Origin: Candidatus Omnitrophota bacterium
GTDB lineage: Bacteria > Omnitrophota > Gorgyraeia > Gygaellales > JBFMHM01
Direction of reading: 5' to 3'
DNA: 64,000 nucleotides
Assembly: GCA_040753015.1 (NCBI GenBank)
Contig: JBFMHM010000006.1
Location: 20,467 to 84,466, forward strand
Under the pieces are notes generated by a model. The model did no database searches and was not told the origin of the DNA. It saw nothing but the letters and a program-made list of their open reading frames with translations. This document shows, piece after piece, positions 32,796-58,500 of the stretch (the stretch's first letter is position 1; each line of letters starts with the position of its first letter). The position numbers were made by a program, and so were the translations under genes.

Positions 32796-33788
32796 GTGAA
32801 AGAAAGAATCATTAATTTTCTTAAATCTTCGAATAACTATATTTCTGGGCAGGATTTAAGTGATAATTTGAAAATCAGCCGTGCTGCTATTTGGAAACAC
32901 ATCAATGAATTAAGGGAGGCGGGGTATGAAATTGAGGCTGTGCCGCATTTAGGCTATAAATTAACTTATATTCCAGATCGTCTCTTCCCCCACGAAATAT
33001 CTTATAACTTAAAAACGAAAATTATTGGTAAGAAAATTTATCATTTAGAAACAACATCTTCAACAATGGATGTTGCTCAAAAACTTGCTATTGATAATAG
33101 CCCATCTGGTACAATTGTTGTTGCTGAAACGCAAACAAGAGGCCGCGGCAGGCTAATGCGTTCTTGGAGTTCCCCAAAATATAAGGGGATATATGTTTCG
33201 ATGATTTTAAGGCCAAAAATTTCTCCGCAATGTGCACCACAGCTAACATTATTGACTGCTTTTTCGATTTACCAAGCAATAAAAAATATAACTGGGCTTG
33301 AAGCAAAGATTAAATGGCCAAATGATTTAATGTTAGAGCATTCCGCCAAAGGCGAGACCTCGCCACTTCGTGGCGGGAAAAAAATTTGTGGCATTTTAAC
33401 CCAGATGCAGGCAGAGCAAGATGAGTTTTATTTCGTAATTATAGGCATCGGACTAAATGTTAATTCTAAAAAAGATGAGTTACCGGATAATGCGGCTTCA
33501 TTAAAAGAATTCTTTAAAGAAGAAATATCTCGCATTGAATTATTAAAAGAGATGTTGAGATGTTTTGAGGCAAATTATTTAAAATTTTGTAAGAATGGTT
33601 TTTTAGACATTTTAGAAAAAGTAAAAGCCATTTCTTATACGCTCGGACGCAATATAAAATTAAAGCTGCACAATAAAATTGTTGAAGGAGAAGCCGTTGA
33701 TATTGATAAAGACACAGCCTTGATAATTCATAAACTACATGGCGGAATAGAAAAAATATTTACCGGAGATATATTAACTATTTGCTAA
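32796..33788 (+). CDS. birA: bifunctional biotin-[acetyl-CoA-carboxylase] ligase / repressor BirA, with in-frame palindromic insert
   Basis: GTG start. N-terminal HTH and GRGRLMRSWSSPKYKGIYVSMIL. Contains the GC-rich insert at 33343-33385. Confidence 0.85.
   Translation: MKERIINFLKSSNNYISGQDLSDNLKISRAAIWKHINELREAGYEIEAVPHLGYKLTYIPDRLFPHEISYNLKTKIIGKKIYHLETTSSTMDVAQKLAIDNSPSGTIVVAETQTRGRGRLMRSWSSPKYKGIYVSMILRPKISPQCAPQLTLLTAFSIYQAIKNITGLEAKIKWPNDLMLEHSAKGETSPLRGGKKICGILTQMQAEQDEFYFVIIGIGLNVNSKKDELPDNAASLKEFFKEEISRIELLKEMLRCFEANYLKFCKNGFLDILEKVKAISYTLGRNIKLKLHNKIVEGEAVDIDKDTALIIHKLHGGIEKIFTGDILTIC
33343..33385. repeat. GC-rich palindromic element, family A, in frame within birA
   Basis: CCGCC-AAA-GGCGAG-ac-CTCGCC-acttcgt-GGCGG-GAAAAAAAT, translated as AKGETSPLRGGKK. 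Confidence 0.7.
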
Positions 33789-33863
33789 ATATTAATGTAA
33801 ACCAAAGATTTTGTTTTAATTGACAATACCGCAAAAAAGCGGTATTTTTATTTAGGTGGAAAA

Positions 33864-34841
33864 ATGAACAGTTATATTCAAAGATTAACAAAAGATGTTT
33901 TGGCTGGTAAGAATATTTTATTTAGTCAAGCAGAGCGATTGATTAATGCGCCTGACGATGATTTACTTTTGCTTTTAGACGGGGCAAATAAGATTCGTAA
34001 TAGATTTAGAGGGAATAAGATTAATCTTTGTTCAATTACAAATGCCAAAAGCGGAAAATGCAGCCAAGATTGTAAGTTTTGTAGTCAATCAAATTTCCAT
34101 AAGACGGATATTAAGACTTATTCCTTGATAAAATTAGATAAAATATTAGCACGCGCAAAAAAATATTACCAAGCAGGTTCGAATAGGTTTTGTATTGTAG
34201 TAAGCGGCAGGGCCTTAACTAAAAATGACTTTGAGACGGTTTGTCATGCAATTGTTCAAATAAAAAAGCGATGGCCAAATATGCGGCGCGATGCATCGTT
34301 AGGGGAGTTAACTTTTGAGATGGCAGAAAAATTAAAATTAGCAGGGTTGCAAAGATACAACCATAATTTAGAAACAGTCGAGGAGTTTTTTCCAAAGATT
34401 TGCACGACTCATAGTTTTGATGATCGTATTAAAACACTAGAAGTTTTAAGAAAAGTTGGTTTACAAATTTGCTCAGGCGGGATATTTGGGCTAGGAGAAA
34501 CAAAAAAGCAACGCGTAGAATTTGCTTATTTTTTAAAAGAACTTAATGTCGACTGTATGCCGCTTAATTTTTTGAACCCGGTTAAAGGGACAGCCTTTGA
34601 AAATAACAAGCCACTAAAGCCATTTGAAATCTTAAAAACAATTGCAATGTTTCGTTTTGTTAATCCAAAAAAGCAAATTCGTATTTGTGGCGGCAGGGAA
34701 AAGAATTTACGTTCCTTGCAATCATTAATATTTTTTTCTGGGTGTGACAGCATAATTTTTGGCGATTATCTAACAACAAAAGGCAATGCATTAAATGATG
34801 ATTTGCAGATGATAAAAGACTTAGGATTAAAAATTCGATAA
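33864..34841 (+). CDS. bioB: biotin synthase
   Basis: CSQDCKFCSQS radical SAM motif. Confidence 0.9.
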   Translation: MNSYIQRLTKDVLAGKNILFSQAERLINAPDDDLLLLLDGANKIRNRFRGNKINLCSITNAKSGKCSQDCKFCSQSNFHKTDIKTYSLIKLDKILARAKKYYQAGSNRFCIVVSGRALTKNDFETVCHAIVQIKKRWPNMRRDASLGELTFEMAEKLKLAGLQRYNHNLETVEEFFPKICTTHSFDDRIKTLEVLRKVGLQICSGGIFGLGETKKQRVEFAYFLKELNVDCMPLNFLNPVKGTAFENNKPLKPFEILKTIAMFRFVNPKKQIRICGGREKNLRSLQSLIFFSGCDSIIFGDYLTTKGNALNDDLQMIKDLGLKIR

Positions 34842-34856
34842 TATTTTGCTTGTATT

Positions 34857-35975: not shown

Positions 35976-36817
35976 CTGCAAAATCTGGTATTAGATGGCA
36001 CTATAAAACAAAAGGTCTAGGTGAAATTTTATTTTTTATTCACGGTTGGTCTAGTGATTGTGATGTTTGGCATAATCAACTAGATTATTTCTATAATCAT
36101 TACAAAGTTGTAATAATTGATTTGCCCGGGCACGGCAAGACACCTTGGAAAGATATCTCTTTTAATATAATGGTTAACGATTTAGTCCAGATTTTAAATC
36201 AATTTGAGCAAAAGATTAATATTGTCGGTACTTCTTTTGGCGGAGCAATTGCAATTAAGTTGGCTGGTAAGCTTGGCAATTCAGTGAAACGATTGATTCT
36301 TGTAGATACGAGTGCAAAATTTATGAGCGCACTTGATTTTATCGGGGCACTAGAAAAAAAAGAATTAAATGAGCTCAAATCTTTAATAAAACTATATTAT
36401 CCTAATGGGCTTCTAATATTTTATCGTAATTTATTCACTTCATTTGAAAAAAGACAGGTGAATTTTCCAAGTATCTGGCAAAAATTTAAACATCGAAAAA
36501 AGTTTCCGGAAAAGAAATCACTGTTAAAATTTCTTAATATAATCGATAACCTTGATTTAAGAGACGAGCTTTTAAAAATTAAAGCACGGACTTTGATTGT
36601 CGCAGGAAGTCTAGATTCGTTATTTAGAAAAACCTGTCATAATTATTTAGCAGATAATATTAAAAATTCAAAAATAGTCTTTTTAGAAAATTTAGGGCAC
36701 GTTCCTTTCTTAACTGATCCAAGTGCATTTAATCATGTATTAGATGAATTCCTGATGCCTAAGCAGGCCATTAATATTAATGATACTACTATTGAGGTAT
36801 CAAAAAAATTAGTATAA
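35963..36817 (+). CDS. bioH: pimeloyl-[ACP] methyl ester esterase-like alpha/beta hydrolase
   Basis: GTSFGG nucleophile elbow. Position between bioF and bioC. Confidence 0.65.
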   Translation: MPYITAKSGIRWHYKTKGLGEILFFIHGWSSDCDVWHNQLDYFYNHYKVVIIDLPGHGKTPWKDISFNIMVNDLVQILNQFEQKINIVGTSFGGAIAIKLAGKLGNSVKRLILVDTSAKFMSALDFIGALEKKELNELKSLIKLYYPNGLLIFYRNLFTSFEKRQVNFPSIWQKFKHRKKFPEKKSLLKFLNIIDNLDLRDELLKIKARTLIVAGSLDSLFRKTCHNYLADNIKNSKIVFLENLGHVPFLTDPSAFNHVLDEFLMPKQAININDTTIEVSKKLV

Positions 36818-36820
36818 AAG

Positions 36821-41518: not shown

Positions 41519-41531
41519 GGGAGGTTAGGAG

Positions 41532-44581: not shown

Positions 44582-44606
44582 CGCTAGTACATTTATATGG
44601 TATAAT
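44578..44606 (+). promoter_or_regulatory. strong sigma70-like promoter (extended -10)
   Basis: TTGACG (44578-44583), 17-nt spacer, TGG-TATAAT (44601-44606). It overlaps the stop codon of the GAF-ANTAR gene. Confidence 0.55.
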
Positions 44607-44651
44607 TAAATTGTAAGTAGCACAAGGATTGTGCAGTAGATTTAGCAATGA

Positions 44652-44688
44652 GGCGTGTGCCATTAACTAGGCATGCGCCTTTTTGTTT
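44652..44688 (+). terminator. intrinsic terminator / attenuator in the sigma-factor leader
   Basis: 10-bp stem GGCGTGTGCC/GGCATGCGCC (two G.U pairs), 8-nt loop, then TTTTTGTTT. Confidence 0.55.
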
Positions 44689-44752
44689 GGATAATGGAGT
44701 CCTTTTCGAGAGAAATAATCTCTTAAAAAGGATTTTTATTTTTAGGAGCCAG

Positions 44753-45262
44753 ATGGAATTCAGTTTATTGCTTAATAGGCTTTCAGCGCGTTTGAAAAAA
44801 ATTGCCAGATTTTATGGTACAAGAAGTCATTTTTTAAACAATGACGATCTCTATCAAGAAATGTGTTTACATCTTTGGAATAATTTTAAGGATGGGGTAC
44901 CTCCGGAATTTAATGATGCTTATGTTATCCGTGGGTGTGAATTTCATATTTTAAATTATTTAAGGAAGAATAGAGAAAAAGTAAAATTTGTAAGTATTGA
45001 TGAGCCCATAGATGATAATGCTAATACTATAAAAGATATGTTAGTTGATACAAAAGAACCCCTCAAACAATATGTGAATAGAAAAATAACTATGGAATAT
45101 ATTAGTAATAATGGGTTTTCTAAAATGGAAAAAGATGTTTTTGCTTTTTTGATGGAAGGGTTTACGGTTAGAGAGATTGGTAAGAAAATAGGCGTTTCGC
45201 ATGTTTATGTCATAAAATTAAAAAAGAGCTTAGTTACCAAAACAAAAACTTTGTTACTTTAG
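44753..45262 (+). CDS. ECF-type (sigma-70 family) RNA polymerase sigma factor
   Basis: Region-2-like DDLYQEMCLHLWNNF and C-terminal HTH FTVREIGKKIGVSHVYVIKLKK. Start taken at MEFSLL after an AGGAG RBS. Confidence 0.65.
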   Translation: MEFSLLLNRLSARLKKIARFYGTRSHFLNNDDLYQEMCLHLWNNFKDGVPPEFNDAYVIRGCEFHILNYLRKNREKVKFVSIDEPIDDNANTIKDMLVDTKEPLKQYVNRKITMEYISNNGFSKMEKDVFAFLMEGFTVREIGKKIGVSHVYVIKLKKSLVTKTKTLLL

Positions 45263-45372
45263 TAGCTGTAAGGATTTTTTAAAAGCACATTGATGTAATT
45301 TTAGGACCGAGACGTCCAATTTGTTGCAAAGTGTTGCAATGGGTTGGGCGTTTTTCATTCTATACATAATTT

Positions 45373-46185
45373 ATGGAGAGATATATGTTTAAAAAAATAA
45401 GATTTTCAGTTTTTATTTTTACCATTTTACTTTTGACCTTTACATTTTCTTATGCTACTCCTACAACGCATATTTGGTCGCCGTCAACCGATGTTCAGCC
45501 ATACGGTGTATTTCACTTAACCGCAGATGCTTATGTTCCAGTTGAGCGAGACAGTGCAGGGAACAGGCCTGACACAGTCACAAACTTTGGCTTAACCACA
45601 GGCATTTTACCGTTCGATAAATTTAATGCTGAAGTTGGTTTTGACCATATTGCAGGGTACGGCGCTTTAGATACTTATCCATTTTATTTTAATTGGAAGG
45701 TAGGCACACCAGAAGATGTATTTTCTAAATTTTTTCCCGCACTTGCTTTTGGTGAATATATGATTGGTACAAAACAAAAAAAAGCAACTGGTGTTGTAAG
45801 AACAGGCTACAACATTTTTTATTGGAAAGCAGCAAAGACGTTATCGATAAAGAATTTTTCTTTGGGTAGATTTTCTGCTGGGTATTATCGCGGCGATAAA
45901 GATTTACTTTTGGATGCAAATGGTAATAGCGATAACGATGGTGTACTTTTAGCCTGGGAAAGAATAATGAGCGAGATTTCTGATAAGCTTTGGGTTTGTG
46001 TAGATTATCAGGGAGGAAAAAATAGTTTTGGTGCGATGAACTATGGATTTGCTTGGAAGTTTTCTCCTAATGTAAGCGTACTATTTGGTTATGACGTACC
46101 AAATAACAGCAATCTTGCTAAAACATTTACTGTGCAATGTGATATAGACTTCGATTTGTTTAGTAAGTTTTTAAGAAAAAAATAG
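45373..46185 (+). CDS. hypothetical secreted protein, porin-like, immediately upstream of amtB
   Basis: Signal peptide FSVFIFTILLLTFTFSYA. Beta-rich, Gly/aromatic-rich body. RBS GGAGAG. Confidence 0.4.
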   Translation: MERYMFKKIRFSVFIFTILLLTFTFSYATPTTHIWSPSTDVQPYGVFHLTADAYVPVERDSAGNRPDTVTNFGLTTGILPFDKFNAEVGFDHIAGYGALDTYPFYFNWKVGTPEDVFSKFFPALAFGEYMIGTKQKKATGVVRTGYNIFYWKAAKTLSIKNFSLGRFSAGYYRGDKDLLLDANGNSDNDGVLLAWERIMSEISDKLWVCVDYQGGKNSFGAMNYGFAWKFSPNVSVLFGYDVPNNSNLAKTFTVQCDIDFDLFSKFLRKK

Positions 46186-46209
46186 AAGGATTAAAAGGAG
46201 GTAATATTT

Positions 46210-47439
46210 ATGATAAATACAGGCGATACGGCGTGGATTATGATTTCATCGGCGCTAGTTATGCTGATGACTCCGGGCTTGGCATTTTTTTATGGCGGTA
46301 TGGTTCGGCGTAAAAATATCTTAAATGTTTTGATGCAATGTTTTATTGTTTTATGTGTACTAAGTTTGCAATGGGTTTTGTTTGGATATAGTCTTTCGTT
46401 TGCGCCAAGCAACGGCTTTTGGGGTGGGTTTAGTTGGTTAGGGTTAAAAGGCGTAGGGCTTGAACCTTATGTTGATTATGCTCCGACTATTCCACATCAG
46501 CTTTTCATGGCTTTTCAGATGATGTTTGCCATTATTACACCAGCTTTAATTATTGGTGCGTTTGCAGAGAGAATGAAATTTAGCTCATTCTTAATTTTTA
46601 CAATTATTTGGGCAACATTTGTTTATGCTCCAGTTTGCCATTGGGTTTGGGGTATGGGTGGATTTTTAAGAAAATTAGGTGCGCTTGATTTTGCTGGAGG
46701 GACAGTTGTTCATATTAACGCTGGAATTGCAGCGATAGTTACGGCAATTATGATTGGAAAACGCAAAAATCTAAATGGCCATATGCCTAGTCCACATAAT
46801 CTACCTTTTGTAGTTTTAGGAACCGCACTTCTTTGGTTTGGTTGGTTTGGTTTTAATGCTGGTAGTGCTTTGGCAGCAAATGGTTTAGCGGTAAATGCAT
46901 TTGTTGTTACAAATACTGCTGCAGCAGCTGCGGGTTTAAGTTGGGCACTTTTAGAATGGATTCGTAACGGTAAGCCGACGATGTTTGGTGTTGCATCGGG
47001 TGCGGTTGCGGGATTAGTTGCAATTACTCCGGCTGCGGGTTTTGTGAGCGTAATTTCAGCAATAATTATTGGTTTGTTGGTTAGTGTATTTTGTTTTATT
47101 GCTGTTAGTTTTATTAAACCAAAACTTGGCTACGATGATTCTTTAGATGCATTTGGTGTTCACTGTGTTGGCGGAATTTGGGGGGCGCTTGCAACTGGTT
47201 TATTTGCCTCAAAGGTTGTGAATAGCGCCGGAAGTGATGGTTTATTTTTTGGCAACCCAAAGCAATTTTTCGTTCAAGCCTTAACGGTGTTAATTACAAT
47301 TGTATATACTGCAATAGTGACAGCGGTTATTTATAAAATTGTAGATGTCATATTTGGGATAAGAGTCACTGAAAAAGAAGAACTTATGGGTCTTGATTTA
47401 ACCCAACACAGAGAAAGGGCATATACGGTGTTAGAATGA
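46210..47439 (+). CDS. amtB: ammonium transporter
   Basis: Amt signature [16 protein letters not shown] and twin-His region. Confidence 0.9.
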
Positions 47440-47777
47440 AACTAATTATTGCAATTATCCAACCATACAAATTAGAAGAAGTAAAAGAGGCTCTATACAG
47501 CGCTGATATTAATCTAATTACGGTAAGCGAAGTATTAGGCCATGGCAGGCAAAAAGGTGTAACCGAAGTTTATCGCGGCCATAAAGAAACCGGTAATTTA
47601 CTTCGCAAAATTCGCCTAGAGATTACCGTAAATGAAGAATTTGTTGAGCCAACAATAAAAGCAATTATAAAAGGCGCAAAAACTGGTGAAACAGGTGATG
47701 GAAAGATCTTCGTGTTAGACTTAAAAGAATGTGTGAGGATTAGGACAGAGGAGCGCGGCCCAGTTGCTATAGGGTAA
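47436..47777 (+). CDS. glnK: nitrogen regulatory protein P-II
   Basis: [20 protein letters not shown]..., T-loop RGHKETG. 4-nt overlap with amtB. Confidence 0.9.
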
Positions 47778-47783
47778 TATAAA

Positions 47784-47817
47784 TAAAAAAGCCCCGAATC
47801 ATATCGGGGCTTTTTTA
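47784..47817. terminator. bidirectional intrinsic terminator between glnK (+) and the convergent gene (-)
   Basis: AAAAAA GCCCCGA-atcata-TCGGGGC TTTTTT. Confidence 0.8.
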
Positions 47818-47830
47818 TTTGAATTATAAA

Positions 47831-49420
47831 CTAACCTTTTAGAACTGCTTCAGCTTCTTTCCTATAAGCATCCATCACGTAAGGAATACCAGAGACTTTT
47901 GCTGCATCTTCGGTAAGAGCCATTACATCGCTTCTTGAGATTGATGGTAAGCTGAAATTACGGCTTCCTGCCATTAATTGCTGTAAGCCAACTTTAATTC
48001 TTTGGCTAAATGTGTAAATACCAACAGCGCCTAATGGGATGTCTTTTATATCTTTGCCATATTTTTCTTTTAATTCCTCATATGAAACAAAGATTTCTTC
48101 TGGTTTTGTGCCGAAGTCAGAAATAGTTTTAGGAAGCTTATTTTCCTTAATCCATGTTTCGACATTTTTGCCAACAAAGCCCGGGATCATCAAAGCTCTA
48201 CCCATACAAACTGCTTTAACGTATGGTGCGCCCATAGCAAGGACTTTAAACACATGGTCCTCTAAGGCAAAACCACCAGCAATTGCAATGTCAGGTATGC
48301 GCATTTTTTTCTTTGCTAATTTTTCGCAGAACTCATAAGTTAATGCTTGTAAGTAGAATGTAGGAATACCCCATTCTTGCATCATTCTCCATGGGCTCAT
48401 TCCAGTTCCGCCTGGTGCGCCGTCAATTGTCAAAAGGTCAATTTTAGCAATTGAGGAAAATTTGATTGCCTGTGCAAGCTCTTTCATTGAATAAGCACCG
48501 GTTTTAAGAGTGATTCTTTTAAAACCAAGATCACGTAATCTTTTGATTTCTTTCAAGAAACCTTCTTTAGAAACAAATCCTAGACGTGAATGCCTTTCAA
48601 ATTCTTTGATTGCGCCTGCTTTGAATGCTTCTTGAATTGCATGTACGCTTGGATCAGGCGTAACAATATACCCACGGCGTTGTAATTCTAGTGCGCGCTC
48701 TAATGTCTTTACCTTGATTTCACCGCCGATACATTTTGCTCCTTGTCCCCATTTTAGTTCGATTGTATCAAGCTTGTGTTTTTTACTGACATATTCAGCC
48801 ACGCCTAAACGTGTATCCTCAACATTCATTTGTACTAAAATTTCGCCATAACCTTGGTGGAATTTTTTGTATGTATTGATACGGCGGTCCATTTCAGGTG
48901 ATTTGGCAATTTTTCCTTTTGAATCAAGCTCGAGCCCTGGGTCAATGCCGCAGACATTTTCTCCGCATACTAAAGTAACGCCGGATATTGCAGCACCAAC
49001 TGCAAAATGCTCCCAATTTTTACGGGCAATTTCTGTTGAGCCTAAAGCGCCTGTAAAAATAGGTACTTTCATTTTTACTTTTTGGTTCCATCCATATTCA
49101 GTTTCCGTATCCACATCAGGAAACTTAGTTGTGTCTGGGTCACCCTTTACGCCTTTTGGAAGGCCTTTTGCGCCTTGGGCATAACCTTGGATATTAAGAT
49201 GTGAATAATCAACTGGATAATCTTTGTCTGCTCCGGCAGTCATTTCGCCGAATGGGCCAGGATAGATTACTTCTCTTCCTCTAAATGAGGATTTAAATAC
49301 TTCGCAGTTTCCTACGCAATTTTCAACGCATCTTGAGCATAGGCCTGAGGAAGGAACAACATTTTTTGAGCGGTTGAATGTTCTTGTTGCATCATTTCCG
49401 CCCGGGCATCGTAAATTCAT
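47831..49420 (-). CDS. FMN-dependent glutamate-synthase-domain-2-like protein (GltB-related) with N-terminal Cys cluster
   Basis: N-terminal CSRCVENCVGNCEV Fe-S motif. FMN/TIM-barrel region with GGTGMSP and IAGGF, homologous to the GltB FMN domain. RBS GGAGG. Confidence 0.7.
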   Translation of the reverse strand: MNLRCPGGNDATRTFNRSKNVVPSSGLCSRCVENCVGNCEVFKSSFRGREVIYPGPFGEMTAGADKDYPVDYSHLNIQGYAQGAKGLPKGVKGDPDTTKFPDVDTETEYGWNQKVKMKVPIFTGALGSTEIARKNWEHFAVGAAISGVTLVCGENVCGIDPGLELDSKGKIAKSPEMDRRINTYKKFHQGYGEILVQMNVEDTRLGVAEYVSKKHKLDTIELKWGQGAKCIGGEIKVKTLERALELQRRGYIVTPDPSVHAIQEAFKAGAIKEFERHSRLGFVSKEGFLKEIKRLRDLGFKRITLKTGAYSMKELAQAIKFSSIAKIDLLTIDGAPGGTGMSPWRMMQEWGIPTFYLQALTYEFCEKLAKKKMRIPDIAIAGGFALEDHVFKVLAMGAPYVKAVCMGRALMIPGFVGKNVETWIKENKLPKTISDFGTKPEEIFVSYEELKEKYGKDIKDIPLGAVGIYTFSQRIKVGLQQLMAGSRNFSLPSISRSDVMALTEDAAKVSGIPYVMDAYRKEAEAVLKG

Positions 49421-49696
49421 TTTTAACCTCCAATTTTTAAGACAAAAATATTACCTTCGACATTTTGACAGCTTTGTCTTGTTATCGATATGTGTACAGC
49501 ACTACTTTGTGCTGGTGGGTATATTTAACATTGCCTACAAATTATGCAAAAAATGCTCAATAAGTAGGCGATTAATGAAAAGTATAGAATAAATTTTTGA
49601 TTTTGTAAAGTTTTTTTTAATTTTGTTACCAACTAGGTAAAATTATTACTTTTATAATTAGTGCCTGAAAAATAAGCACACTGAAAAATAATGAAC

Positions 49697-49731
49697 AGGG
49701 GTGTTCTTTTTATAAGAATACCTCTTTTTTT
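49697..49731 (+). terminator. intrinsic terminator / attenuator in the glnN leader
   Basis: Stem 49700-49708 GGTGTTCTT pairs with 49714-49722 AAGAATACC (one G.U). 5-nt loop, then a T-run. Lies ~45 nt upstream of the glnN RBS. Confidence 0.5.
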
Positions 49732-49777
49732 ATTTGGAGGTTATGGTAAAATATTTAATTATAAATTAGGAGGTTAT

Positions 49778-51970
49778 ATGTGCGTAAGGCAAGAAGCTCT
49801 ATTCAATATTAAACCAACGGAATTCCCTAAAAAAGAAGATTTCAAAAAAGTATCCAGCTATTTTGGCGAAAATACATTTAGCTTAGATACGATGAAAAAA
49901 TACATTTCCTCAGAAACTTTTAAGGCATTTAAGTCATGGATGCAGGAAGGCAAGATTATTACAATTGATCAGGCAAACGAAATTGCTAATGCAATGAAAG
50001 AGTGGGCGACATCAAAAGGGGCTACTTATTACACGCATTGGTTTCAGCCAATGACTGGTCTAACAGCAGAAAAACACGATAGCTTTATTTCAATCACTGG
50101 CCCGGGAAAAGTTATTGAGAAATTTTCTGGTTCAAAATTAATTCAAGGTGAGCCGGATGCAAGCTCTTTTCCTTCGGGCGGCATTCGGGCAACATTTGAA
50201 GCAAGAGGTTATACTGCATGGGATCCAACGAGTGCAGCATTTATCATTGAGAGCAAGTTGGGAAAAACTCTTTGTATTCCCACAATCTTTATTTCTTATC
50301 ACGGTGATGCCTTAGACAAAAAACTCCCACTTTTAAGATCTGATGAAGCCTTAAATAAGGCGGCAGTTAATTTCTTAAAACTTTTTGGCCATCAAGATGT
50401 AAAAAAAGTTTATTCAACTTGTGGGCCAGAGCAAGAATATTTCTTGATTGATAAAAATTACTATAATTTACGGCAAGATTTATTGTTAACTGGGCGTACG
50501 CTTGCTGGAGCACCTTCGCCTAAAGGCCAGCAGCTTGAAGATCAATATTTTGGCACCATTAAAGAACGCGTTCTTAACTTTATGTTTGAGGTAGCAGAAG
50601 AGGCCTATAAGCTGGGTATTCCAATTACAACCCGTCACAACGAAGTTGCCCCACATCAATATGAATTTGCGCCAATTTTTGAAGAATCAAATATTGCTGC
50701 AGACCATAACCAGCTTCTAATGGAATTAATGAAAAAAATTGCTATTCGCCACAATCTTATTTGTTTATTACATGAGAAGCCATTTGCCGGAGTTAATGGT
50801 AGTGGTAAACATTTAAATTGGTCGCTCGCCGACGATAAATGCAACAATTTATTAAACCCTGGCGAAACGCCCGAAGATAATTTACAATTCTTAGCAGTCC
50901 TCGCGGCAGTTCTGCGTGCAGTCTATTTACATTCTGATTTGCTACGTGCAAGCGTGGCTATTGCTGGAAATGAACATAGGCTTGGTGCAAATGAAGCGCC
51001 TCCCGCAATAATTAGTGTATTTTTAGGCGAACAGCTAACGACAATTTTAGAAATGATCGAAAAAGGTGCTAAGAAAAAAGTCTCTAAACACGATATTATT
51101 GATTTAGGTATTTCACGTTTACCGAAATTTAATAAAGATACAACCGATAGGAACCGCACATCGCCATTTGCCTTTACTGGGGCAAAGTTTGAATTTAGGG
51201 CAGTTGGTTCATCACAAAATATTTCTACACCTATTACAATCATTAATACTATAATTGCTGAAAGCCTTGATTATATCTCAGAAAAAATTGCTAAAGAGGC
51301 AAAACATGGTGATTTTAATACAGTTGTATTAAAAGTTATTGCTCAGATTATTAAGGAAAGCAAAGATATTTGTTTTGAAGGCAATAATTATTCAGGGGAG
51401 TGGGTGAAAGAAGCAAAAAAACGCGGCCTTCCTAATATTGCTTCAACTATTGAGGCACTTGAGGCATTTGTTGAAGAAAAGAATATCAAATTATTTGAAA
51501 AATATAAGGTTTTTTCGAAGCAAGAAATTGTTGCCCGTTATCATATTTGGGCACATATGTATGATTTAACCTTGGAAATCGAGGCAAATACCCTAAATGA
51601 AATGGTTAATGCAAGCGTTGTGCCATTTGGGCTTCAGTATCAAGAGCTTTTGGCAGAGAATCTTTCAAGGATAGCTCATCTTAAAAAAGATGCAAAGTTG
51701 ACTATTGATAAGAAAGCATTTGATGATTTAAAAGAACATCTTTCAGAAGTAGTTTCAAAAATTTATTATGTTAGAAAGAATACTAAAGAAATGGTTAAGC
51801 TCTTAGAAAGAGCATCAAAGCTTGACGCTGAAAAGCGTGCAGAAGTTTATTTCAAAGAACTAAAACCATTGATGGAGCATATTCGTAGGCATGTTGATGA
51901 CTTAGAAAAAGTTGTTTCTGATGAGCATTGGGATTTACCGAAATATAGAGAGATGTTATTTATTAAATAA
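49778..51970 (+). CDS. glnN: glutamine synthetase type III
   Basis: ~730-aa GS with GSIII-specific N- and C-terminal extensions. Start at 49778 follows a GGAGG RBS. The ORF-track start 49691 would include the leader terminator. Confidence 0.85.
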   Translation: MCVRQEALFNIKPTEFPKKEDFKKVSSYFGENTFSLDTMKKYISSETFKAFKSWMQEGKIITIDQANEIANAMKEWATSKGATYYTHWFQPMTGLTAEKHDSFISITGPGKVIEKFSGSKLIQGEPDASSFPSGGIRATFEARGYTAWDPTSAAFIIESKLGKTLCIPTIFISYHGDALDKKLPLLRSDEALNKAAVNFLKLFGHQDVKKVYSTCGPEQEYFLIDKNYYNLRQDLLLTGRTLAGAPSPKGQQLEDQYFGTIKERVLNFMFEVAEEAYKLGIPITTRHNEVAPHQYEFAPIFEESNIAADHNQLLMELMKKIAIRHNLICLLHEKPFAGVNGSGKHLNWSLADDKCNNLLNPGETPEDNLQFLAVLAAVLRAVYLHSDLLRASVAIAGNEHRLGANEAPPAIISVFLGEQLTTILEMIEKGAKKKVSKHDIIDLGISRLPKFNKDTTDRNRTSPFAFTGAKFEFRAVGSSQNISTPITIINTIIAESLDYISEKIAKEAKHGDFNTVVLKVIAQIIKESKDICFEGNNYSGEWVKEAKKRGLPNIASTIEALEAFVEEKNIKLFEKYKVFSKQEIVARYHIWAHMYDLTLEIEANTLNEMVNASVVPFGLQYQELLAENLSRIAHLKKDAKLTIDKKAFDDLKEHLSEVVSKIYYVRKNTKEMVKLLERASKLDAEKRAEVYFKELKPLMEHIRRHVDDLEKVVSDEHWDLPKYREMLFIK

Positions 51971-51983
51971 AAAGCTTATCTTT

Positions 51984-52026
51984 AAAAGCGCCCCGATGCG
52001 TATATTACTATCGGGGCGCTTTTTTA
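51984..52026 (+). terminator. intrinsic terminator after glnN
   Basis: 11-bp stem AGCGCCCCGAT/ATCGGGGCGCT, 12-nt loop, TTTTTT. Confidence 0.8.
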
Positions 52027-52054
52027 TTCCATGTATTGTAAATATGTTCTAGGC

Positions 52055-52088
52055 ATACTCGGAAAAAGTCTTGACTTTTTCCGAGTAT
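52055..52088. promoter_or_regulatory. perfect 16-2-16 palindrome overlapping a TTGACT -35-like hexamer (candidate operator)
   Basis: ATACTCGGAAAAAGTC tt GACTTTTTCCGAGTAT. A TAGACT -10-like hexamer lies 16 nt downstream of TTGACT. It is 17 nt upstream of the 52105 start. Confidence 0.5.
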
Positions 52089-52104
52089 AGTGTAGACTTT
52101 AAGT

Positions 52105-53334
52105 ATGGATAAAAGGGTTCTCTATAAAGATTTATGGGATGAATTATCTAAAGATAAGTCTTTGATTATGTTGGCTGGCCCGCGCCAGGCGGGTAAAACT
52201 ACTTTTGCCAAAAGTATTGTAGCAAAAGATTTTTTAGATACTATTTATCTCAATTGGGATATTTCTGCAGATAAAAAACGGCTTATTGAAGACCCCGAAT
52301 TTTTTTCTAAGGAATCTCGTAGTAGTGTTTCTTCGCGCCCACTGGTTATTCTTGATGAAATTCATAAATATCGCGATTGGAAAAATTACCTTAAAGGTAT
52401 TTACGATCAATTTGCCACTAACTATCAGTTTCTTGTTACAGGTAGCGGCCGGTTGGAATTTTCTCGTAAAGCTGGTGACTCACTTGCTGGCAGGTTTCTT
52501 AAATTTCATATTTTTCCTTTAACACTTGGCGAGCTTTTTTATAAGAGAAGAGAGTTAAAAGACTTTATTGGTAATCCATTGAAAGAGTTTGAAGGCCATT
52601 CAGTTAAAACAACAGCTAAGGCCTTCCATCTACTATGGGAATTAAGCGGTTTTCCAGAACCTTTTCTAAAAGGGAAGAAGGCATTTTGGTCTGCTTGGTC
52701 TAGCACATATGGCCAACAAATAGTTAGGGATGATTTAAGGACGATTGCAGATATACGTAATCTTGACATGATTGAGACGCTTTTTGCGCTTGTGCCGGGA
52801 AGAGTGGGAAGCCCCATGTCGATGAATAATTTGGCAGGTGATCTTCAGGTAGCTTTTGATACTGTGAAAAATTGGTTATTACTCTTTGATTCATTTTATC
52901 TTACATTTCGTCTTTCTCCTTGGACATCGAAGCTGTCAAGAAGTATTCTTAAAGAGAAAAAAATATATCTTTTTAATTTCCCAGTTATCGAAGATGAAGG
53001 CAGCCGGTTTGAAAACTTGGTTGCTTTAGAATTATTCAGGGCAATTGAGACTTGGAATGACCGCGGTTTTGGTAATTTTACGTTGCACTATCTTAGAAAT
53101 AAAGATAAGCAGGAAGTCGATTTCCTTTTAGCAAAAAATAACCACCCGTTTCTTTTAATTGAAACAAAACTTTCCGATGAAACTTCTGCTTCAAATTTAT
53201 TGTTTTTTCAGAATTTTTTTAATATTCCTGCTGTACAACTTGTTAAAAAAGAAGGAGTAAAAAAAGTTTTTAGAAATGGCTTAAATAATGTTTTGGTCGT
53301 AACTGCGCACATGTGGCTTGCTGCGTTGCCTTAA
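52105..53334 (+). CDS. AAA+ ATPase, COG1373-like (DUF4143-like C-terminal region)
   Basis: Walker A LAGPRQAGKTT, Walker B VILDEIH, ~410 aa. Confidence 0.65.
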   Translation: MDKRVLYKDLWDELSKDKSLIMLAGPRQAGKTTFAKSIVAKDFLDTIYLNWDISADKKRLIEDPEFFSKESRSSVSSRPLVILDEIHKYRDWKNYLKGIYDQFATNYQFLVTGSGRLEFSRKAGDSLAGRFLKFHIFPLTLGELFYKRRELKDFIGNPLKEFEGHSVKTTAKAFHLLWELSGFPEPFLKGKKAFWSAWSSTYGQQIVRDDLRTIADIRNLDMIETLFALVPGRVGSPMSMNNLAGDLQVAFDTVKNWLLLFDSFYLTFRLSPWTSKLSRSILKEKKIYLFNFPVIEDEGSRFENLVALELFRAIETWNDRGFGNFTLHYLRNKDKQEVDFLLAKNNHPFLLIETKLSDETSASNLLFFQNFFNIPAVQLVKKEGVKKVFRNGLNNVLVVTAHMWLAALP

Positions 53335-53348
53335 TTAGTCAAAAGTAG

Positions 53349-53386
53349 CGCTCCGATTGTGCTTTGCTCATCGGGGGCTCTTTTTA
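53349..53386 (+). terminator. weak intrinsic terminator candidate
   Basis: 7-bp stem CTCCGAT/ATCGGGG (one U.G) followed by CTCTTTTT. Confidence 0.35.
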
Positions 53387-53482
53387 AGCCGAATAAAAAT
53401 ATTTTTAAATTTAGTTATGACTAGATTATGCATATATGATTTATTAACATATATCATTAGGATAATTGGAGCGTGAATTAAA

Positions 53483-55117
53483 GTGAAAGATAATTTGTTG
53501 AGAATAGGTCTTGCCCAAATAAATTCTTGCGTTGGGGATTTAGAAGGTAACCGGAAAAAAATCTTTGAATTTGTTGAAAAAGCAAAAGAAAATGCTTGCG
53601 ATTTAGTTGTGTTCCCCGAGCTTGCTATTACGGGCTATCCTCCTGAAGACCTGCTTTTAAAAAAACATTTCATCTCGGATAATATAAAAACTCTAAACTC
53701 TTTGGTTAAAGAAATTAAGCAAATTACAGCTGTTATTGGTTTCGTTGATCAAAATAAAAATCATATTTTTAACGCTGCAGCAGTAATTACCGATGGAAAA
53801 TTAAAGGGTATTTATCATAAAAAAAACCTTCCAAATTATAGTGTATTTGACGAAAAAAGATATTTTGAATCTGGTTTTAAAAACCCATTATTTAAGGTTG
53901 GTAAATTTATTTGTGCAGTTAATATCTGTGAAGACATTTGGGAAGAGGGCGGAGTCTATGCGCAGCAGAAAAAATCTGGAGCAAATTTATTGATCAATAT
54001 TTCCGCCTCACCCTATTATATCGATAAGATTAATTTAAGGAAAAAAATGTTATCCCGCCGTGCAAAAGATCTGAATGACTTTGTTTGTTATTGCAATTTA
54101 GTTGGCGGACAAGATGAGCTTGTTTTCGACGGTGGAAGTTTTATTTTTGATAAAAAAGGGAAATTGATTGCTTTCGGTAAGCAATTTCAGGAAGATTTAT
54201 TAATCGCCGATTTAGGAATTGTAGGGGCGGCCCCAAGTGGCCGCCCGAAGAATATCGGACAGCCACGCCAAATGTCGCGATTAGAGGAAGTTTATAGCGC
54301 CTTAGTTTTAGGGACAAGAGATTACATAACCAAAAATGGATTTAAAAAAGTAGTTATTGGCTTAAGCGGAGGAATTGATTCTGCTTTAGTTGTAGCAATT
54401 GCCGTAGATGCGCTTGGCCGTGAAAATGTAGTCGGTGTTTCTATGCCATCACAATATACATCTCTTGGAACAAAAACCGATGCCGAAATTTTAGCAAAAA
54501 ACCTCAAGATAAAATTTTTAACTATCCCTATCGACGGGATATTTAATACTTACTTAGATAATCTTCAAAAAGAATTTTCTGGTAGAGCAAAAGATACAAC
54601 TGAGGAAAATTTGCAGGCGCGTATTCGCGGCAATATCTTGATGTCTTTATCGAATAAATTTGGCTGGCTTGTTTTAACAACTGGCAATAAAAGTGAAACG
54701 TCTGTTGGATATTGCACGTTGTATGGAGATATGGCAGGCGGATTTGCTGTGATAAAAGATGTTTTTAAGACGCTTGTCTATGATTTGGCGTATTTTAGAA
54801 ACGAAAAAGATAAAATTATTCCGGAAACTATTTTTACGCGATCTCCTTCCGCAGAATTAAAAGAAAATCAGAGGGATCAAGACAGCCTTCCAGATTATGA
54901 AGTTTTAGACCATATCTTAAAGGGCTATATTGAGGAAGACAAAAGTATTGAACAAATAATTGCAAAAAAATTTGACGCAGATATAGTTAAAAAAGTTATT
55001 AAATTAGTGGATACTAATGAATATAAGCGCCGTCAAGCGCCGCCAGGCATAAAGATTACACCAAAAGCATTCGGTAAAGACCGCCGTTTACCAATTACTA
55101 ATAAATATAATAAATAA
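53483..55117 (+). CDS. nadE: glutamine-dependent NAD+ synthetase (nitrilase domain + NAD synthetase domain)
   Basis: GTG start. N-terminal CN-hydrolase, C-terminal PP-loop GLSGGIDSALV. Contains a GC hairpin insert at 54225-54246. Confidence 0.9.
   Translation: MKDNLLRIGLAQINSCVGDLEGNRKKIFEFVEKAKENACDLVVFPELAITGYPPEDLLLKKHFISDNIKTLNSLVKEIKQITAVIGFVDQNKNHIFNAAAVITDGKLKGIYHKKNLPNYSVFDEKRYFESGFKNPLFKVGKFICAVNICEDIWEEGGVYAQQKKSGANLLINISASPYYIDKINLRKKMLSRRAKDLNDFVCYCNLVGGQDELVFDGGSFIFDKKGKLIAFGKQFQEDLLIADLGIVGAAPSGRPKNIGQPRQMSRLEEVYSALVLGTRDYITKNGFKKVVIGLSGGIDSALVVAIAVDALGRENVVGVSMPSQYTSLGTKTDAEILAKNLKIKFLTIPIDGIFNTYLDNLQKEFSGRAKDTTEENLQARIRGNILMSLSNKFGWLVLTTGNKSETSVGYCTLYGDMAGGFAVIKDVFKTLVYDLAYFRNEKDKIIPETIFTRSPSAELKENQRDQDSLPDYEVLDHILKGYIEEDKSIEQIIAKKFDADIVKKVIKLVDTNEYKRRQAPPGIKITPKAFGKDRRLPITNKYNK
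54225..54246. repeat. GC hairpin GGGCGGCC-ccaagt-GGCCGCCC in frame within nadE
   Basis: 8-6-8 perfect inverted repeat in an otherwise AT-rich gene, translated as GAAPSGRPK. Sits in the inter-domain linker. Confidence 0.5.
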
Positions 55118-55291
55118 TTTTGTTACCATATTATATTAATTTTTACTTATAATAATAGGCACGCGGTAGTGCTTATTATATAGAAATTTAACAAAGACGT
55201 TCGTTGTGGTATATAAAGCGCCATGATGAACGTTTTTTTATTGGGAACAATTGATTAAAAGTTAGGCAGAGTTTGCTAAAAAATTATACAT

Positions 55292-55507
55292 ATGGATAAA
55301 AAGATTATTGATGAATATTTTTTAATATTTTCGAAGGGCGAAATTTATTCAAAGGCAATTTTAGATACAGAAAGACTTTTGATTGAGAAGGCGCTTGAAT
55401 ATTCATCAGGTAATCAGATTATTGCAGCAAAGATTCTAGGAATGAATAGAAACACGCTAAGAACGAAAATTAAAAAATTGAATATTGATATAAAGGTATA
55501 TAAATGA
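55292..55507 (+). CDS. Fis-type helix-turn-helix DNA-binding protein (71 aa)
   Basis: C-terminal GNQIIAAKILGMNRNTLRTKIKKLNI matches the Fis/NtrC-type HTH. Overlaps the gltB start by 4 nt. Confidence 0.55.
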   Translation: MDKKIIDEYFLIFSKGEIYSKAILDTERLLIEKALEYSSGNQIIAAKILGMNRNTLRTKIKKLNIDIKVYK

Positions 55508-58500
55508 TCGATAGCCGTAAAGAAAAATTATCCGCCGTAGGCCCGTGGCTTCGCCGCGAGGCGAGCGAGACCTCGTCACTGTATGACGGGGAACAATTTG
55601 GTTTATATGACCGGCGTTTTGAGCACGATGCCTGTGGTGTAGGTTTTGTATGCGACATTAAAGGAAGGAAGTCGCACGATATTATACAAAAAGGCATTGA
55701 GGTTTTAAGAAGGCTGAGCCATCGCGGGGCAGTTGGCGCAGACCCAAAAACCGGTGATGGCGCAGGAATTTTAATCCAAATTCCCGATGAATTTTTAAGA
55801 AAAGAATGTGCTAAATTAAAGATCTCACTGCCTGAATTTGGTAATTATGGCGTAGGTCTGGTATTTTTGCCACAAGATGACAAAGAGCGTAAGTTTTGCC
55901 TCGATGCTTTTGAAAAAATTATTAAGCAAGAAAAAGAAAAATTATTAGGGTTTCGGGAAATCGAAGTTGATAGTTCGATTATCGGTAAAACCGCACAGAA
56001 TACTCAACCAAAAATTAGTCAAATCTTTATTGAGAAGTCAGAGAATGTCAAAAAAGGGTTAGATTTTGAAAGAAAACTTTATCTAATCCGTAAGCAAGTT
56101 GAGAATATAATTTGTGCCTCAACTATTCGACAAAAAGATTTTTTCTATATTACAAATATTTCTTCTCAAACGCTTATCTATAAAGGTCTTTTGATGCCTG
56201 ATCAAGTCGATGGTTTTTTCCCAGAGCTTAAAGATGAATCTTTAACGAGCTCTTTGTGTTTAGTGCATTCTCGTTATAGTACAAATACGTTTCCGACCTG
56301 GGATTTAGCGCAGCCATTTCGATACCTCGCTCATAACGGAGAGATAAATACTTTAAGGGGAAATATTAATTGGATGCAGGCACGAGAGGGCCTTCTAAAG
56401 AGTATTTTTTTTAATAAAGATATAGAAAAATTAAAGCCTGTAATTGTGCCTGGTGGCAGTGACTCTGCGGTAATTGATAATGTTTTTGAATTATTGTTTC
56501 TTTCAGGAAGGTCTCTTAGTCATGTTATGTCAATGCTTATTCCAAGCGCATGGGAGCAGAATAAGGAATTAAACAGCGAATTAAAAAATTTCTATAAATA
56601 TCATGTTTGCTTTATGGAGCCGTGGGATGGGCCAGCTGCAATTGCTTTTACAGATGGAACAAATATTGGCGCTGTATTAGATAGAAACGGCCTTAGGCCT
56701 TGCCGTTACATTGTTACAAAAGATGATTTTGTTGTAATGGCTTCAGAGGTAGGTGTTTTAGATATCGAGCCAAAAAATATTAAACTTTCCGGGCGCCTTA
56801 ACCCAGGAAAGATGTTTTATATTGATACAAAAAAAGGCCGTATTATTGGTGATGATGAAATTAAAAAAGAACTTTCCGCTAAAAAGCCTTATGGAAAATG
56901 GTTAAAAGAAAATTTAGTTAGCTTAGACGATGTGAAAGGTGTGAAGATAAAAGAAAAACAACTAAAAGATACGTTGACATTATTAAAAGCATTTGGTTAT
57001 TCTAAAGAAGATTTAAAAATGATTATTTCTCCTATGGTTCAAAATTCCCAAGAGCCTATTGGTTCAATGGGCAATGATACGCCTTTGGCAGTTTTATCAA
57101 AAAATCCACAGCTACTTTATAGCTATTTTAAACAGTTGTTTGCCCAAGTTACAAATCCAGCAATTGACCCGATAAGAGAAGAAATAGTTATGACTTTAGA
57201 GAGTTTTGTTGGTAGCCAAAAAAATATTTTGGAAGAAACTGATAAACATTGCCATAAGCTATATGTAAAAAATCCAATACTCGAAAATAGAGAGCTAGAA
57301 AAAATAAAGAAAATTAAGCAAAAAGGATTTAAGGCAAAGGTGATATCGATTTTATTCAAAGTAGATGATAAAAAAGATTTTAGGCGGAGATTAGATGAGA
57401 TTTGTAAAGAGGCAGAGCTTGCGATAAAAGACGGCTATTCATTTATTATTTTAAGTGATAAAGGGGTTGCAAGCGAAATGGCGGCATTGCCAGCTTTGCT
57501 TGCAGCGGGCACTATTCATCAATATTTAGTAAAAAAGGCGCTGCGTACGCAAATTGGAATTATTCTTGAAACTGCCGAACCGCGTGAAGTGCACCACTTT
57601 GCGCTTTTATTCGGTTATGGTGTTGATTGCATTAATCCATATTTATCTTATGATGCAATTGAATATTTAATCTCCACCCAGGGCGGATCCGCCTTTGGCG
57701 GAAAAGAGAAAGAGCTTGATTTAGATTACAAAACTGCAATTAAAAATTATCGTAAGGCATTGTCAAAAGGAATTTTAAAAATCCTTTCTAAAATGGGAAT
57801 TTCTACTCTACATAGCTATCGTGGAGCTCAGGTATTTGAGGCAATTGGCATAGCTAATGAAGTTATTGAGAAGAGTTTTTCTGGCACACCGTCGAGAATT
57901 GGTGGTGTGGGATTTGTTGAAATTGAAAAAGAAACATTGCTGCGCCATAGCGAGGCATTTCCGAAAAACAAAAATTTAGAAACCCCGTATCTAGCAATTG
58001 GGGGGTTATATCAATGGAAAAAAGGTGGTGAATTTCATCTTTGGAACCCTGAAACAATAGCAAGCCTTCAAGATGCTGTTAGGAAAAATAATTATTCTAA
58101 ATTTAAAGAGTTCTCAAATTTAATAAATGACCAGTCAAATAATCCTACAACTTTACGGTCGTTATTAAAATTTTCCGCCAAAGGCGAGACCTCGCCGCAA
58201 AGCGGCGGGAAAAAAATAATACCAATACCGCTTGATCAAGTTGAACCAAAAGAAAGTATTTTTAAGCGGTTTGCTACTGGTGCAATGAGTTTTGGTTCTA
58301 TTTCAAAAGGGGCTCATGAGACTCTTGCGTTGGCAATGAATAAAATTGGCGCAAAGTCAAATACTGGCGAAGGTGGGGAAGACCCAGCAAGATTTATCCA
58401 GCTTCCTAACGGAGATTCTTTAAGAAGTGCGATTAAGCAAGTTGCTTCGGGTAGATTTGGCGTAACCACAAATTATCTCGTTAACGCTGATGAGCTGCAA

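Follow-up and report, generated by a model that had tools for sequence, protein, structure and literature searches.

Double-hairpin elements (DHEs), GC clusters and repetitive hairpin-forming elements occur in the mitochondria of Allomyces, yeasts, sponges and placozoans; to our knowledge, no transposase has been assigned to the double-hairpin elements. For insertion sequences of the IS200/IS605 type, the target is a fixed tetra- or pentanucleotide, 3' of which they integrate, and their cleavage sites lie ~10–20 nt away from their hairpins. Rickettsia palindromic elements (RPEs), about 150 bp long and sorted into ten families, mark Rickettsia genomes (PMC10969869). Repetitive extragenic palindromic sequences (REPs) are presented in PMC3733652 as repeats that by definition lie outside genes, that are specific to a lineage, and that bear a GTAG or CGTC tetranucleotide at one end. 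Palindromic amphipathic repeat coding elements (PARCELs) specify an amphipathic protein repeat of 25 residues, arranged in tandem in surface proteins of unknown function (PMC2996958). The repeats described here were identified in a 64-kb stretch of contig JBFMHM010000006.1 of a Candidatus Omnitrophota bacterium, called the window hereafter, which has a GC content of 33–39% (overall about 35%). Two copies of a GC-rich hairpin element, called family A, are read in frame within its birA and gltB genes, and shorter relatives, called family B, reside in gltB, in gltD and between the two.

The units found in the window are inserted sequences, members of a large repeat family which crosses phyla. They probably represent a previously unannotated family of very small GC-rich double-hairpin DNA elements, acting as selfish non-autonomous insertions. 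A more detailed proposal is put forward tentatively, as one possibility: a cross-phylum family of ~33-nt units would move in a hairpin-specific, duplication-free manner, would have evolved a length divisible by three and free of stop codons, and would seed loops in core proteins.

Insertions in birA and gltB

The window holds exactly two instances of the 22-mer CCGCCAAAGGCGAGACCTCGCC (33343–33364 and 58175–58196, both on the plus strand), vs 0 expected from 100 dinucleotide-preserving shuffles, even at 3 mismatches. A preliminary description of this DNA had noted the identical 22-nt core; identity extends in fact to 24 nt (TTCCGCC...CTCGCC), and is followed by 7 variable nt (ACTTCGT in copy 1, GCAAAGC in copy 2) and by GGCGGGAAAAAAAT. 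The T ahead of the core is preserved in 24 of 24 exact-core copies. Copy 2 is identical at 36 of 36 positions to an intergenic copy in another Omnitrophota metagenome-assembled genome (MAG; L005). The sharp GC contrast also noted earlier is real, the two units measuring 69% and 72% GC, against about 35% in the window.

Comparison of empty and filled sites in BirA and GltB sets the ends of the unit, which is therefore 36 nt long and not ~43 bp as first proposed. In the GAAAAAAAT tail assigned to it, only the last G belongs to the element; the remainder corresponds to host codons (AAAAAAAT, a conserved Lys-Lys pair). BirA orthologues show K195 and K196 to be invariant, and the ancestral sequence of GltB is F-KK-x-x-P-I-P. 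The units lie in frame in two unrelated coding sequences and encode near-identical peptides, SAKGETSPLRGG in BirA and SAKGETSPQSGG in GltB, as had been reported.

BirA of the window measures 330 aa, vs mostly 318–319 aa in the best 120 homologues listed. The 12-residue insert is found in no other protein of an 11-sequence alignment, including the nearest relative P0002 (66–69% identity): in P0002 and other BirA proteins ...WPNDxxxx leads directly to (G/N)KK, and SAKGETSPLRGG stands in between in the window protein. At the DNA level (slashes mark junctions), the nearest relative L025 reads GAAGGT/AAAAAGATT, the window GAGCAT/TCCGCC...GGCGGG/AAAAAAATT. The structure of Staphylococcus aureus BirA (PDB 3rir) leaves an exact 12-residue gap opposite the insert. 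Placement in a protein loop, anticipated earlier, is borne out by the AlphaFold model of the window protein (mean predicted local distance difference test score, pLDDT, 85.6), where the insert forms a low-confidence loop between strands 177–180 and 195–207, with pLDDT <50 at residues 184–191. Another BirA, P0030, encoded by an Omnitrophota-like contig (L023, 1213–1242), carries an independent 30-nt family B unit (CCCGCCAGAGGCGGG + TCCGCCTACGGCGGA, read as PARGGSAYGG), which splits the two conserved Lys codons and lies one codon further on than the window birA site.

The copy-2 segment is similarly absent from the Bacillus subtilis and Azospirillum glutamate synthase (GltS) structures (7mfm, 2vdc), and from 9 of the 10 closest GltB homologues (P0122–P0137), the exception, P0121, having a different insert. 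The empty site in L149 reads AAGTTC/AAAAAG, the window AAATTT/TCCGCC...GGCGGG/AAAAAAATA. P0121, the nearest homologue (L148, GCA_030697785.1), features a different 42-nt double hairpin, TCCGCCACAGAACGCGGCGGA + TCCGCCAAGAATTTTGGCGGA, read as SATERGGSAKNFGG. This unit sits exactly at the F/KK junction filled in the window, in a genome about 69% identical; the site may be a hot spot, or else host an insertion of old date which kept its arms intact while its interior was renewed.

Insertions in BirA, GltB and GltD each equal the element length exactly. Four insertions were mapped onto a structural model or solved structures: that of BirA falls in a disordered turn, those of GltB in an inter-domain linker and in a variable loop, and that of GltD at a small-chain gap. 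The preliminary description had interpreted the two copies as selfish palindromes inserted into coding sequences. Their absence from BirA and GltB orthologues and the existence of further copies support that interpretation, and mobility would account for the presence/absence differences and for the identity of copies.

Hairpin architecture and covariation

Units measure 30–45 nt, most commonly 33 nt, and are made of two directly abutting hairpins built from shared arms. The first reads TCCGCC-N3-GGCG(A)GA (hairpin 1), the second YC(T)CGCC-variable-GGCGGR (hairpin 2), and the variable part of the latter consists of a 0 to 6 bp extension plus the loop. Pairs in hairpin 1 are T1-A16, C2-G15, C3-G13, G4-C12, C5-G11 and C6-G10, with A14 bulged; hairpin 2 features Y17-R(last) and C18-G, a bulged T19, then C20-G, G21-C, C22-G and C23-G before the variable part. 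Family B repeats follow the same design minus the two bulged bases (15+15 nt).

Among the matches listed, 74 are of the subtype ...GAGACCTCGCC...GGCGGG and 26 of the subtype ...GAGATCTCGCC...GGCGGA; three are mixed C/A, none mixed T/G. Position 17 and the last base hence display Watson-Crick covariation (C-G 74, T-A 26, mismatches 3). Four loop combinations, including the AAA/ACTTCGT of the window, are present in both subtypes, and the subtype switch must therefore have occurred repeatedly. The variable part is a tetraloop in the 33-nt class and a paired extension in the other classes: 32 of 34 extension pairs, of four pair types, are Watson-Crick in units with a 7-nt variable part; 5 bp and a 3-nt loop are found in 5/8 units of the 13-nt class, and 6 bp, a 3-nt loop and one extra base in 6/7 of the 16-nt class. 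The family is defined by these hairpin-forming, covarying arms.

The outer stem enclosing an inner hairpin, as the element was first drawn, is one of two folds nearly equal in energy, in DNA and RNA alike. Covariation prefers the other, two tandem hairpins, since the pairing of position 17 with the last base exists only in the tandem model. The nested structure was rejected as the selected fold: 74 copies would have to accommodate a T-G wobble, and the covariation would have no explanation. Compensated double changes fitting the tandem model were found in L052 (CTCACC...GGTGGG), in L065 (TCCGCT...AGCG), and in the first hairpin of the gltB-gltD spacer element of the window (TCTGCC/GGCAGA); the variant L055 favours the nested fold. 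As A14 and T19 pair in the nested fold, the element may be bistable between the two. G-T wobble pairs are almost absent, a feature more in line with DNA hairpins, or with copies of very recent age, than with a conserved RNA.

The centre of AC-subtype elements (33356–33361 and 58188–58193 in the window) holds GAGACC, a BsaI/Eco31I site, that of AT-subtype elements, GAGATCTC, is a perfect palindrome with AGATCT (BglII), and the expanded copy at 63350 has GAGACG (BsmBI); these restriction sites are probably coincidental. Nested or tandem arrays of element arms were observed in L034, L052, L059/L086, L049, L029 and L137. Examples are an element whose loop contains a second one, an open reading frame (ORF) with two elements spaced by 3 nt, and a full element, followed by CAATTTT, with a solo TCCGCCAAGGGCGGA hairpin and another CAATTTT immediately upstream. 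Intergenic copies often occupy the tip of longer inverted repeats (L005 4059–4248 and 4700–4790; L093; L131), such as ATTCCCGC...GCGGGAAT(GAC) and ATAATTTACG...CGTAAATTAT, a position which suggests insertion into the loops of earlier hairpins.

Distribution, reading frames and junctions

The hosts are all MAGs or metagenome contigs. The exact 22-mer was found in 22 loci of a collection holding one genome per species, distributed in five phylum-level groups: Planctomycetota (11 loci; Pirellulales, Phycisphaerae, Sedimentisphaerales), Omnitrophota (5), Patescibacteria (4), Auribacterota (1), and a gammaproteobacterial MAG (1). By our own arithmetic, about 0.07 matches to a 22-mer are expected by chance in 596 Gb. 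The looser pattern TCCGCC N3 GGCGAG N2 CTCGCC marks at least 120 metagenome contigs. Exact-core scan, metagenome matches listed and window together gave 145 pattern matches for analysis. In 103/145 of the matches listed a closing GGCGGR follows within 50 nt, and the central dinucleotide of these 103 is always AC or AT; those with other central dinucleotides are all unclosed, reside mainly on GC-rich contigs, and are taken to be chance matches. Several identical 33-nt sequences were found at different loci, which, like the match of copy 2 to L005, speaks for a recent common origin. The family is present in independent assemblies of many projects, including one single-cell genome.

Viral contigs yielded 0 matches to the exact 23-mer and two to the looser pattern, giving no sign of a phage vehicle, and plasmids (PLSDB, blastn) only partial matches at chance level. 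No Rfam 15 family reached the gathering score across the whole window; the 200 nt around copy 2, searched at E up to 10, gave noise alone (E at least 0.66), and 20 loci no family besides one tRNA. Literature searches by keywords and by literal core DNA, RNA and peptide strings, over about 8 million papers, retrieved no description of the element.

Copies were counted as coding when lying inside an ORF of at least 100 aa, a heuristic applied to 101 non-redundant closed copies. By this measure 69/101 (about 68%) are ORF-internal, and some of the others actually reside in leader peptides, such as the prepilin-type leaders in L047 and L068. Length is divisible by three in 63/69 ORF-internal copies (91%), vs 23/32 (72%) of the others; the multiples of three seen are 33, 36, 39, 42 and 45 nt, and lengths of 35, 37, 40 and 41 nt are wholly missing. 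Inspection of the core revealed no stop codon in any frame of the unit. A length divisible by three and the lack of stops would allow the element to live in loops of core proteins (DnaK, GyrB, RecA, BirA, GltB), and copies in ORFs obey both frame and loop constraints. The frame reading SAxGE(T/I)SP...GG is used by 33 ORF-internal copies, its mirror on the other strand, also SA...GG, by 12 (together 45/69), and the other four frames by 24; both orientations occur within ORFs (47 vs 22). Hosts identified through Pfam include FolD, TrmD, a GltD-like protein, GH97, a B12/radical-SAM enzyme, an LpxL-like fusion, an aminotransferase, a Mur ligase, HMGL-like, PilZ, Glu/Gln-tRNA synthetase (gltX), RecG, GyrB, DnaK, an epimerase, ribosomal protein L25, RecA, and a histidine kinase, functionally unrelated housekeeping proteins.

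These data bear on the idea that the SAKGETSP..GG peptide is an ancestral or functional protein segment, or that the repeats are artefacts of assembly or sequencing. The peptide is indeed small, hydrophilic and glycine-rich like many natural linkers, and the data come entirely from MAGs and metagenomes. Orthologues lack the peptide, however, and the DNA is identical even at synonymous positions across unrelated genes and phyla, where the same DNA is also found in other frames, on the opposite strand and in intergenic regions. Reading frames are preserved, and independent assemblies, the single-cell genome among them, carry the repeats. An origin of this kind is hardly credible.

Junctions can be read at the DNA level in a Patescibacteria DnaK lineage, where L118 and L121 have a 36-nt AT-type copy at one shared codon. 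DnaK proteins of 88–90% identity (e.g. P0243, P0245) lack the insert, which is found in none of the other 120 aligned homologues. Empty dnaK in L150 reads GTAAAAATG/GGAGACAAATGG (the latter starting GGAGAC), filled dnaK in L118 GTAAAAATG/TCCGCC...GGCGGA/GGCGATAAATGG (starting GGCGAT). The difference is an exact 36-nt insertion ending at the hairpin feet, with no target duplication and zero junction microhomology. Arms are perfect in both the L118 and L121 inserts, loops differ. The insertion falls at a position where relatives also differ in length, and the same beta-turn hosts other short GC-rich inserts (L151, L152, P0261, P0280, P0290, P0302, P0304, P0307, P0319), mostly one residue downstream of the L118 site. 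Read as PSAGSGQA (CCTTCGGCAGGCTCAGGGCAGGCT) or PSTSSGQD (CCTTCGACGAGCTCAGGGCAAGAT), these are not palindromic, and may represent a separate family inserted in frame.

Insertion is precise and duplicates no target sequence, and for coding insertions a target-site duplication was ruled out by the BirA, GltB and DnaK junctions. The flanks contain no conserved or palindromic target motif, and a weak signal at +/-2 only: left flanks show a weak T(G/T) preference at -2 and -1, and the sites in DnaK, BirA and GltB are not alike. Short direct repeats in tandem, each of 7–8 nt (CAGCCTT, CAGCTAT, CAACATT/CAACATC, AATCCGTG), often with 2–3 units on each side, flank the elements in L011, L020, L047, L068, L083, L098, L120, L036, L037, L088, L106, L108, L115, L146 and others. 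The element lies at a unit boundary, a pattern which differs from a simple target duplication.

Such flanks are relevant to a spread without any dedicated enzyme, through template switching provoked by the palindrome, hairpin-primed synthesis, slippage or gene conversion, with local duplication generating clusters. Flanking direct repeats of at least 5 nt accompany 19/101 copies (~19%), vs ~4% in the control. The tandem or nested arm arrays of L034, L052, L059 and L049, the clustering of copies within 8 kb of the window, and the occurrence of family A and B variants at one site would fit repair errors as well. Insertion sites are in contrast unrelated in sequence, the DnaK junction shows zero microhomology and exact element ends, and identical copies in different phyla require transfer between genomes. 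The homology-free junction and the inter-phylum identity make this mode of spread unlikely.

The window was also scanned for CCGCC...GGCGG and for GC-rich hairpins, and five further related elements were found, three of 30 nt, one degenerate and one expanded (Table 1). The peptide of the family B element within gltB corresponds to an exact 10-residue gap in 7mfm_G, and is absent from 10/10 aligned GltB homologues; that of the gltD element similarly faces an exact 10-residue gap in the GltS small chain 7mfm_I. The spacer element folds, as DNA, into two perfect hairpins (-11.3 kcal/mol, z = -5.0). The putative relic near the GltB start is assigned to family A by sequence resemblance alone; the GltB N-terminus is ~22 residues longer than 7mfm_G. 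The expanded relative is among only 5/185 distinct pattern matches (both-strand views counted) with a centre >2 nt. RNA encompassing it (63318–63425) folds at -44.2 kcal/mol, with z = -5.1. The larger hairpin around it, 63325–63417, measures ~93 nt, features the arms GGCGGA, TCCGCC, GGCGAGA, TCTCGCC and GGCGGA and long loops, and is enclosed by GTAAGCG.../...CGCTTAC; possible readings are a terminator, an extended version of the element, and an RNA in its own right.

Table 1. Elements of the window and the genes that host them
Feature	Position	Strand	Sequence	Context and support
birA, biotin-protein ligase/repressor, 330 aa	32796..33788	+		Host gene; homologues; Pfam HTH_11, BPL_LplA_LipB, BPL_C; PDB matches
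Family A double hairpin, copy 1	33342..33377	+	36 nt, TCCGCCAAAGGCGAGACCTCGCCACTTCGTGGCGGG	In frame in birA; peptide SAKGETSPLRGG = BirA residues 183-194
gltB, glutamate synthase large chain, 1554 aa	55504..60168	+		Host gene; homologues and PDB; three element-derived segments
Putative degenerate composite family A relic	55527..55583	+	TCCGCCGTAGGC...GGCGAGCGAGACCTCGTC	GltB N-terminal propeptide; GC island; reads SAVG(PWLRREAS)ETSS
Family B tandem double hairpin	57673..57702	+	30 nt, TCCACCCAGGGCGGA + TCCGCCTTTGGCGGA	In frame in gltB; peptide STQGGSAFGG
Family A double hairpin, copy 2	58174..58209	+	36 nt, TCCGCCAAAGGCGAGACCTCGCCGCAAAGCGGCGGG	In frame in gltB; peptide SAKGETSPQSGG between F and KK
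Family B tandem double hairpin	60185..60214	+	30 nt, TCTGCCAAAGGCAGA + TCCGCCTTAGGCGGA	gltB-gltD spacer
gltD, glutamate synthase small chain, 479 aa	60243..61682	+		Host gene; Pfam GltD-like; one family B element
Family B double hairpin	60974..61003	+	30 nt, TCCGCCGAAGGCTGA + TCCGCCTCAGGCGGA	In frame (frame +1) in gltD; 10-residue peptide
Expanded relative	63350..63403	+	TCCGCC-N10-GGCGAGA-N10-TCTCGCC-N8-GGCGGA	Intergenic, downstream of pyrG; within larger hairpin 63325-63417

Five of the seven window hairpin elements reside in the last 8 kb of a nitrogen-assimilation cluster (44600–63300), which encodes an ammonium transporter, P-II, a minus-strand protein with a glutamate-synthase domain, a type III glutamine synthetase, and an AAA_14/DUF4143 ATPase, and includes nadE, gltB, gltD and pyrG. 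A different 8-bp GC hairpin, GGGCGGCC CCAAGT GGCCGCCC, is found at 54225–54246 in nadE, in the linker of the CN-hydrolase and NAD-synthase domains, a region which exceeds that of PDB 5kha by 4 residues. This hairpin may represent a further small insertion, belonging to an unrelated family.

The grouping of those five elements in the nitrogen-assimilation genes gltB, gltD and pyrG would be in keeping with a functional cis-element of the host, such as an mRNA or DNA pause, processing or stability signal or a protein-binding site, repeatedly recruited into genes. So would the identity of arms across phyla, the diverged loops and perfect arms of the L118 and L121 DnaK insertions, the filling of the GltB site in two genomes about 69% identical, and the 47:22 orientation bias in ORFs. 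We nevertheless regard a host function as quite improbable, because close relatives fare well without the element, which is found in either orientation relative to transcription and in functionally unrelated genes. Intergenic copies moreover hold no consistent position relative to genes, no Rfam family matches, and G-U pairs, normal in structured RNAs, are essentially missing.

Mode of spread and comparison with known systems

If the repeats are selfish non-autonomous DNA, as seems probable, their hairpins, probably extruded on single-stranded DNA, would be what a recombinase or transposase acting in trans, and specific for both structure and sequence, recognises; an enzyme of the Y1/HUH type, or another that makes no duplication, is the leading candidate. 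Selection would then purge the insertions which break frame or fold, leaving in-frame loop copies such as those in birA and gltB, and the encoded peptide would be a tolerated by-product rather than a functional module. We infer mobilisation in trans by a hairpin-recognising enzyme, and an in-frame pattern that is the residue of purifying selection.

Several observations weigh against selfish mobility. Neither transposition events nor excision products nor a gene for mobilisation came to light, and ten window ORFs were scanned without finding a transposase. Differently from IS200/IS605, there is no conserved target motif, and the excess of flanking direct repeats reported above sits better with repair errors. 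Arms identical across phyla are odd for a neutral parasite, which would need a conserved cognate enzyme or horizontal spread; in the metagenome set, part of the arm conservation stems from the search pattern itself, in which the arms were fixed. Taxonomy derives from MAG record titles and from names attached to homologues. Lastly, one site can hold different variants in relatives (GltB, 36 vs 42 nt; BirA, two insertions one codon apart). Together with the arms kept in L118 and L121, this could denote hot spots, or a long-term maintenance hinting at function.

Other origins were considered. Derivation by point mutation, as for DNA-uptake or highly iterated palindrome (HIP1)-like sequences, was ruled out, as comparison with orthologues shows the units to be inserted. 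CRISPR repeats, tRNA or rRNA fragments, diversity-generating retroelements and integron attC sites were considered and set aside as unlikely, for want of a matching feature.

If the selfish nature of the family holds true, in-frame palindromic colonisation of essential genes would not be confined to Rickettsia or to organelles, would be common in large uncultured groups (Omnitrophota, Planctomycetota, Patescibacteria), and the family would rank among the smallest mobile DNAs known. Its signature and architecture offer a handle for finding the responsible enzyme, and the element is a natural source of loop insertions for conserved proteins. Gene callers and annotators silently translate features of this class, which affects alignments, phylogenies and structure predictions based on MAG proteins.

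Among described repeats, RPEs are also repeated palindromic DNA found in frame in unrelated, often essential genes, encode a tolerated peptide and are read as selfish (PMC10969869). The likeness to RPEs drawn in the preliminary description holds as an analogy; as family membership it fails on size and host range. The elements described here measure 30–45 nt, are GC-rich in AT-rich or mid-GC hosts, are made of two abutting short hairpins, and have identical cores in Omnitrophota, Planctomycetota, Patescibacteria and other groups, whereas RPEs are defined as residing in Rickettsia/Rickettsiales. Size alone (30–45 nt vs about 100–150 bp) excludes them from the RPEs, from which they are set apart by description.

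REPs and REP doublets (REPINs), associated with Y1/HUH tyrosine transposases (RAYTs), are likewise GC-rich imperfect palindromes of 20–40 nt, present in many copies, often as doublets. Their hairpin is thought to be the recognised feature, and they share with the present element the lack of target duplication. The new repeats depart from REPs as presented in PMC3733652, since 69/101 copies reside in ORFs and the sequence crosses phyla. They begin with TCCG and end with CGGG or CGGA, and GTAG and CGTC are lacking in the flanks. Terminal inverted repeats (TCCGCC...GGCGGR), as in miniature inverted-repeat transposable elements, are present, but measure just 6 nt, and the DnaK comparison and the exact-length insertions reveal no target-site duplication. 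IS200/IS605 elements and palindrome-associated transposable elements (PATEs) feature at their ends two similar hairpins in the same orientation, with extrahelical stem bases, and cause no target duplication; the repeats described here differ in having no conserved flank, and in ending exactly at the hairpin feet.

PARCELs share coding dyad symmetry and a patchy, apparently horizontal spread among distant microbes (PMC2996958); in contrast, the element described here is a single insertion of 10–15 residues in housekeeping enzymes. Mitochondrial DHEs are likewise tiny GC-rich double hairpins which proliferate in AT-rich genomes, both in intergenic regions and in frame in protein genes (compare PMC2800124). 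They are generally known as organellar elements of eukaryotic hosts with unrelated sequences; the present family, bacterial and cross-phylum, is set apart from them by description. The element is apparently an unusually small, widespread and undescribed form of selfish DNA. Its behaviour matches that of Rickettsia palindromic elements, its anatomy that of mitochondrial DHEs and REPs, and it appears to be a member of neither the RPEs nor the DHEs.

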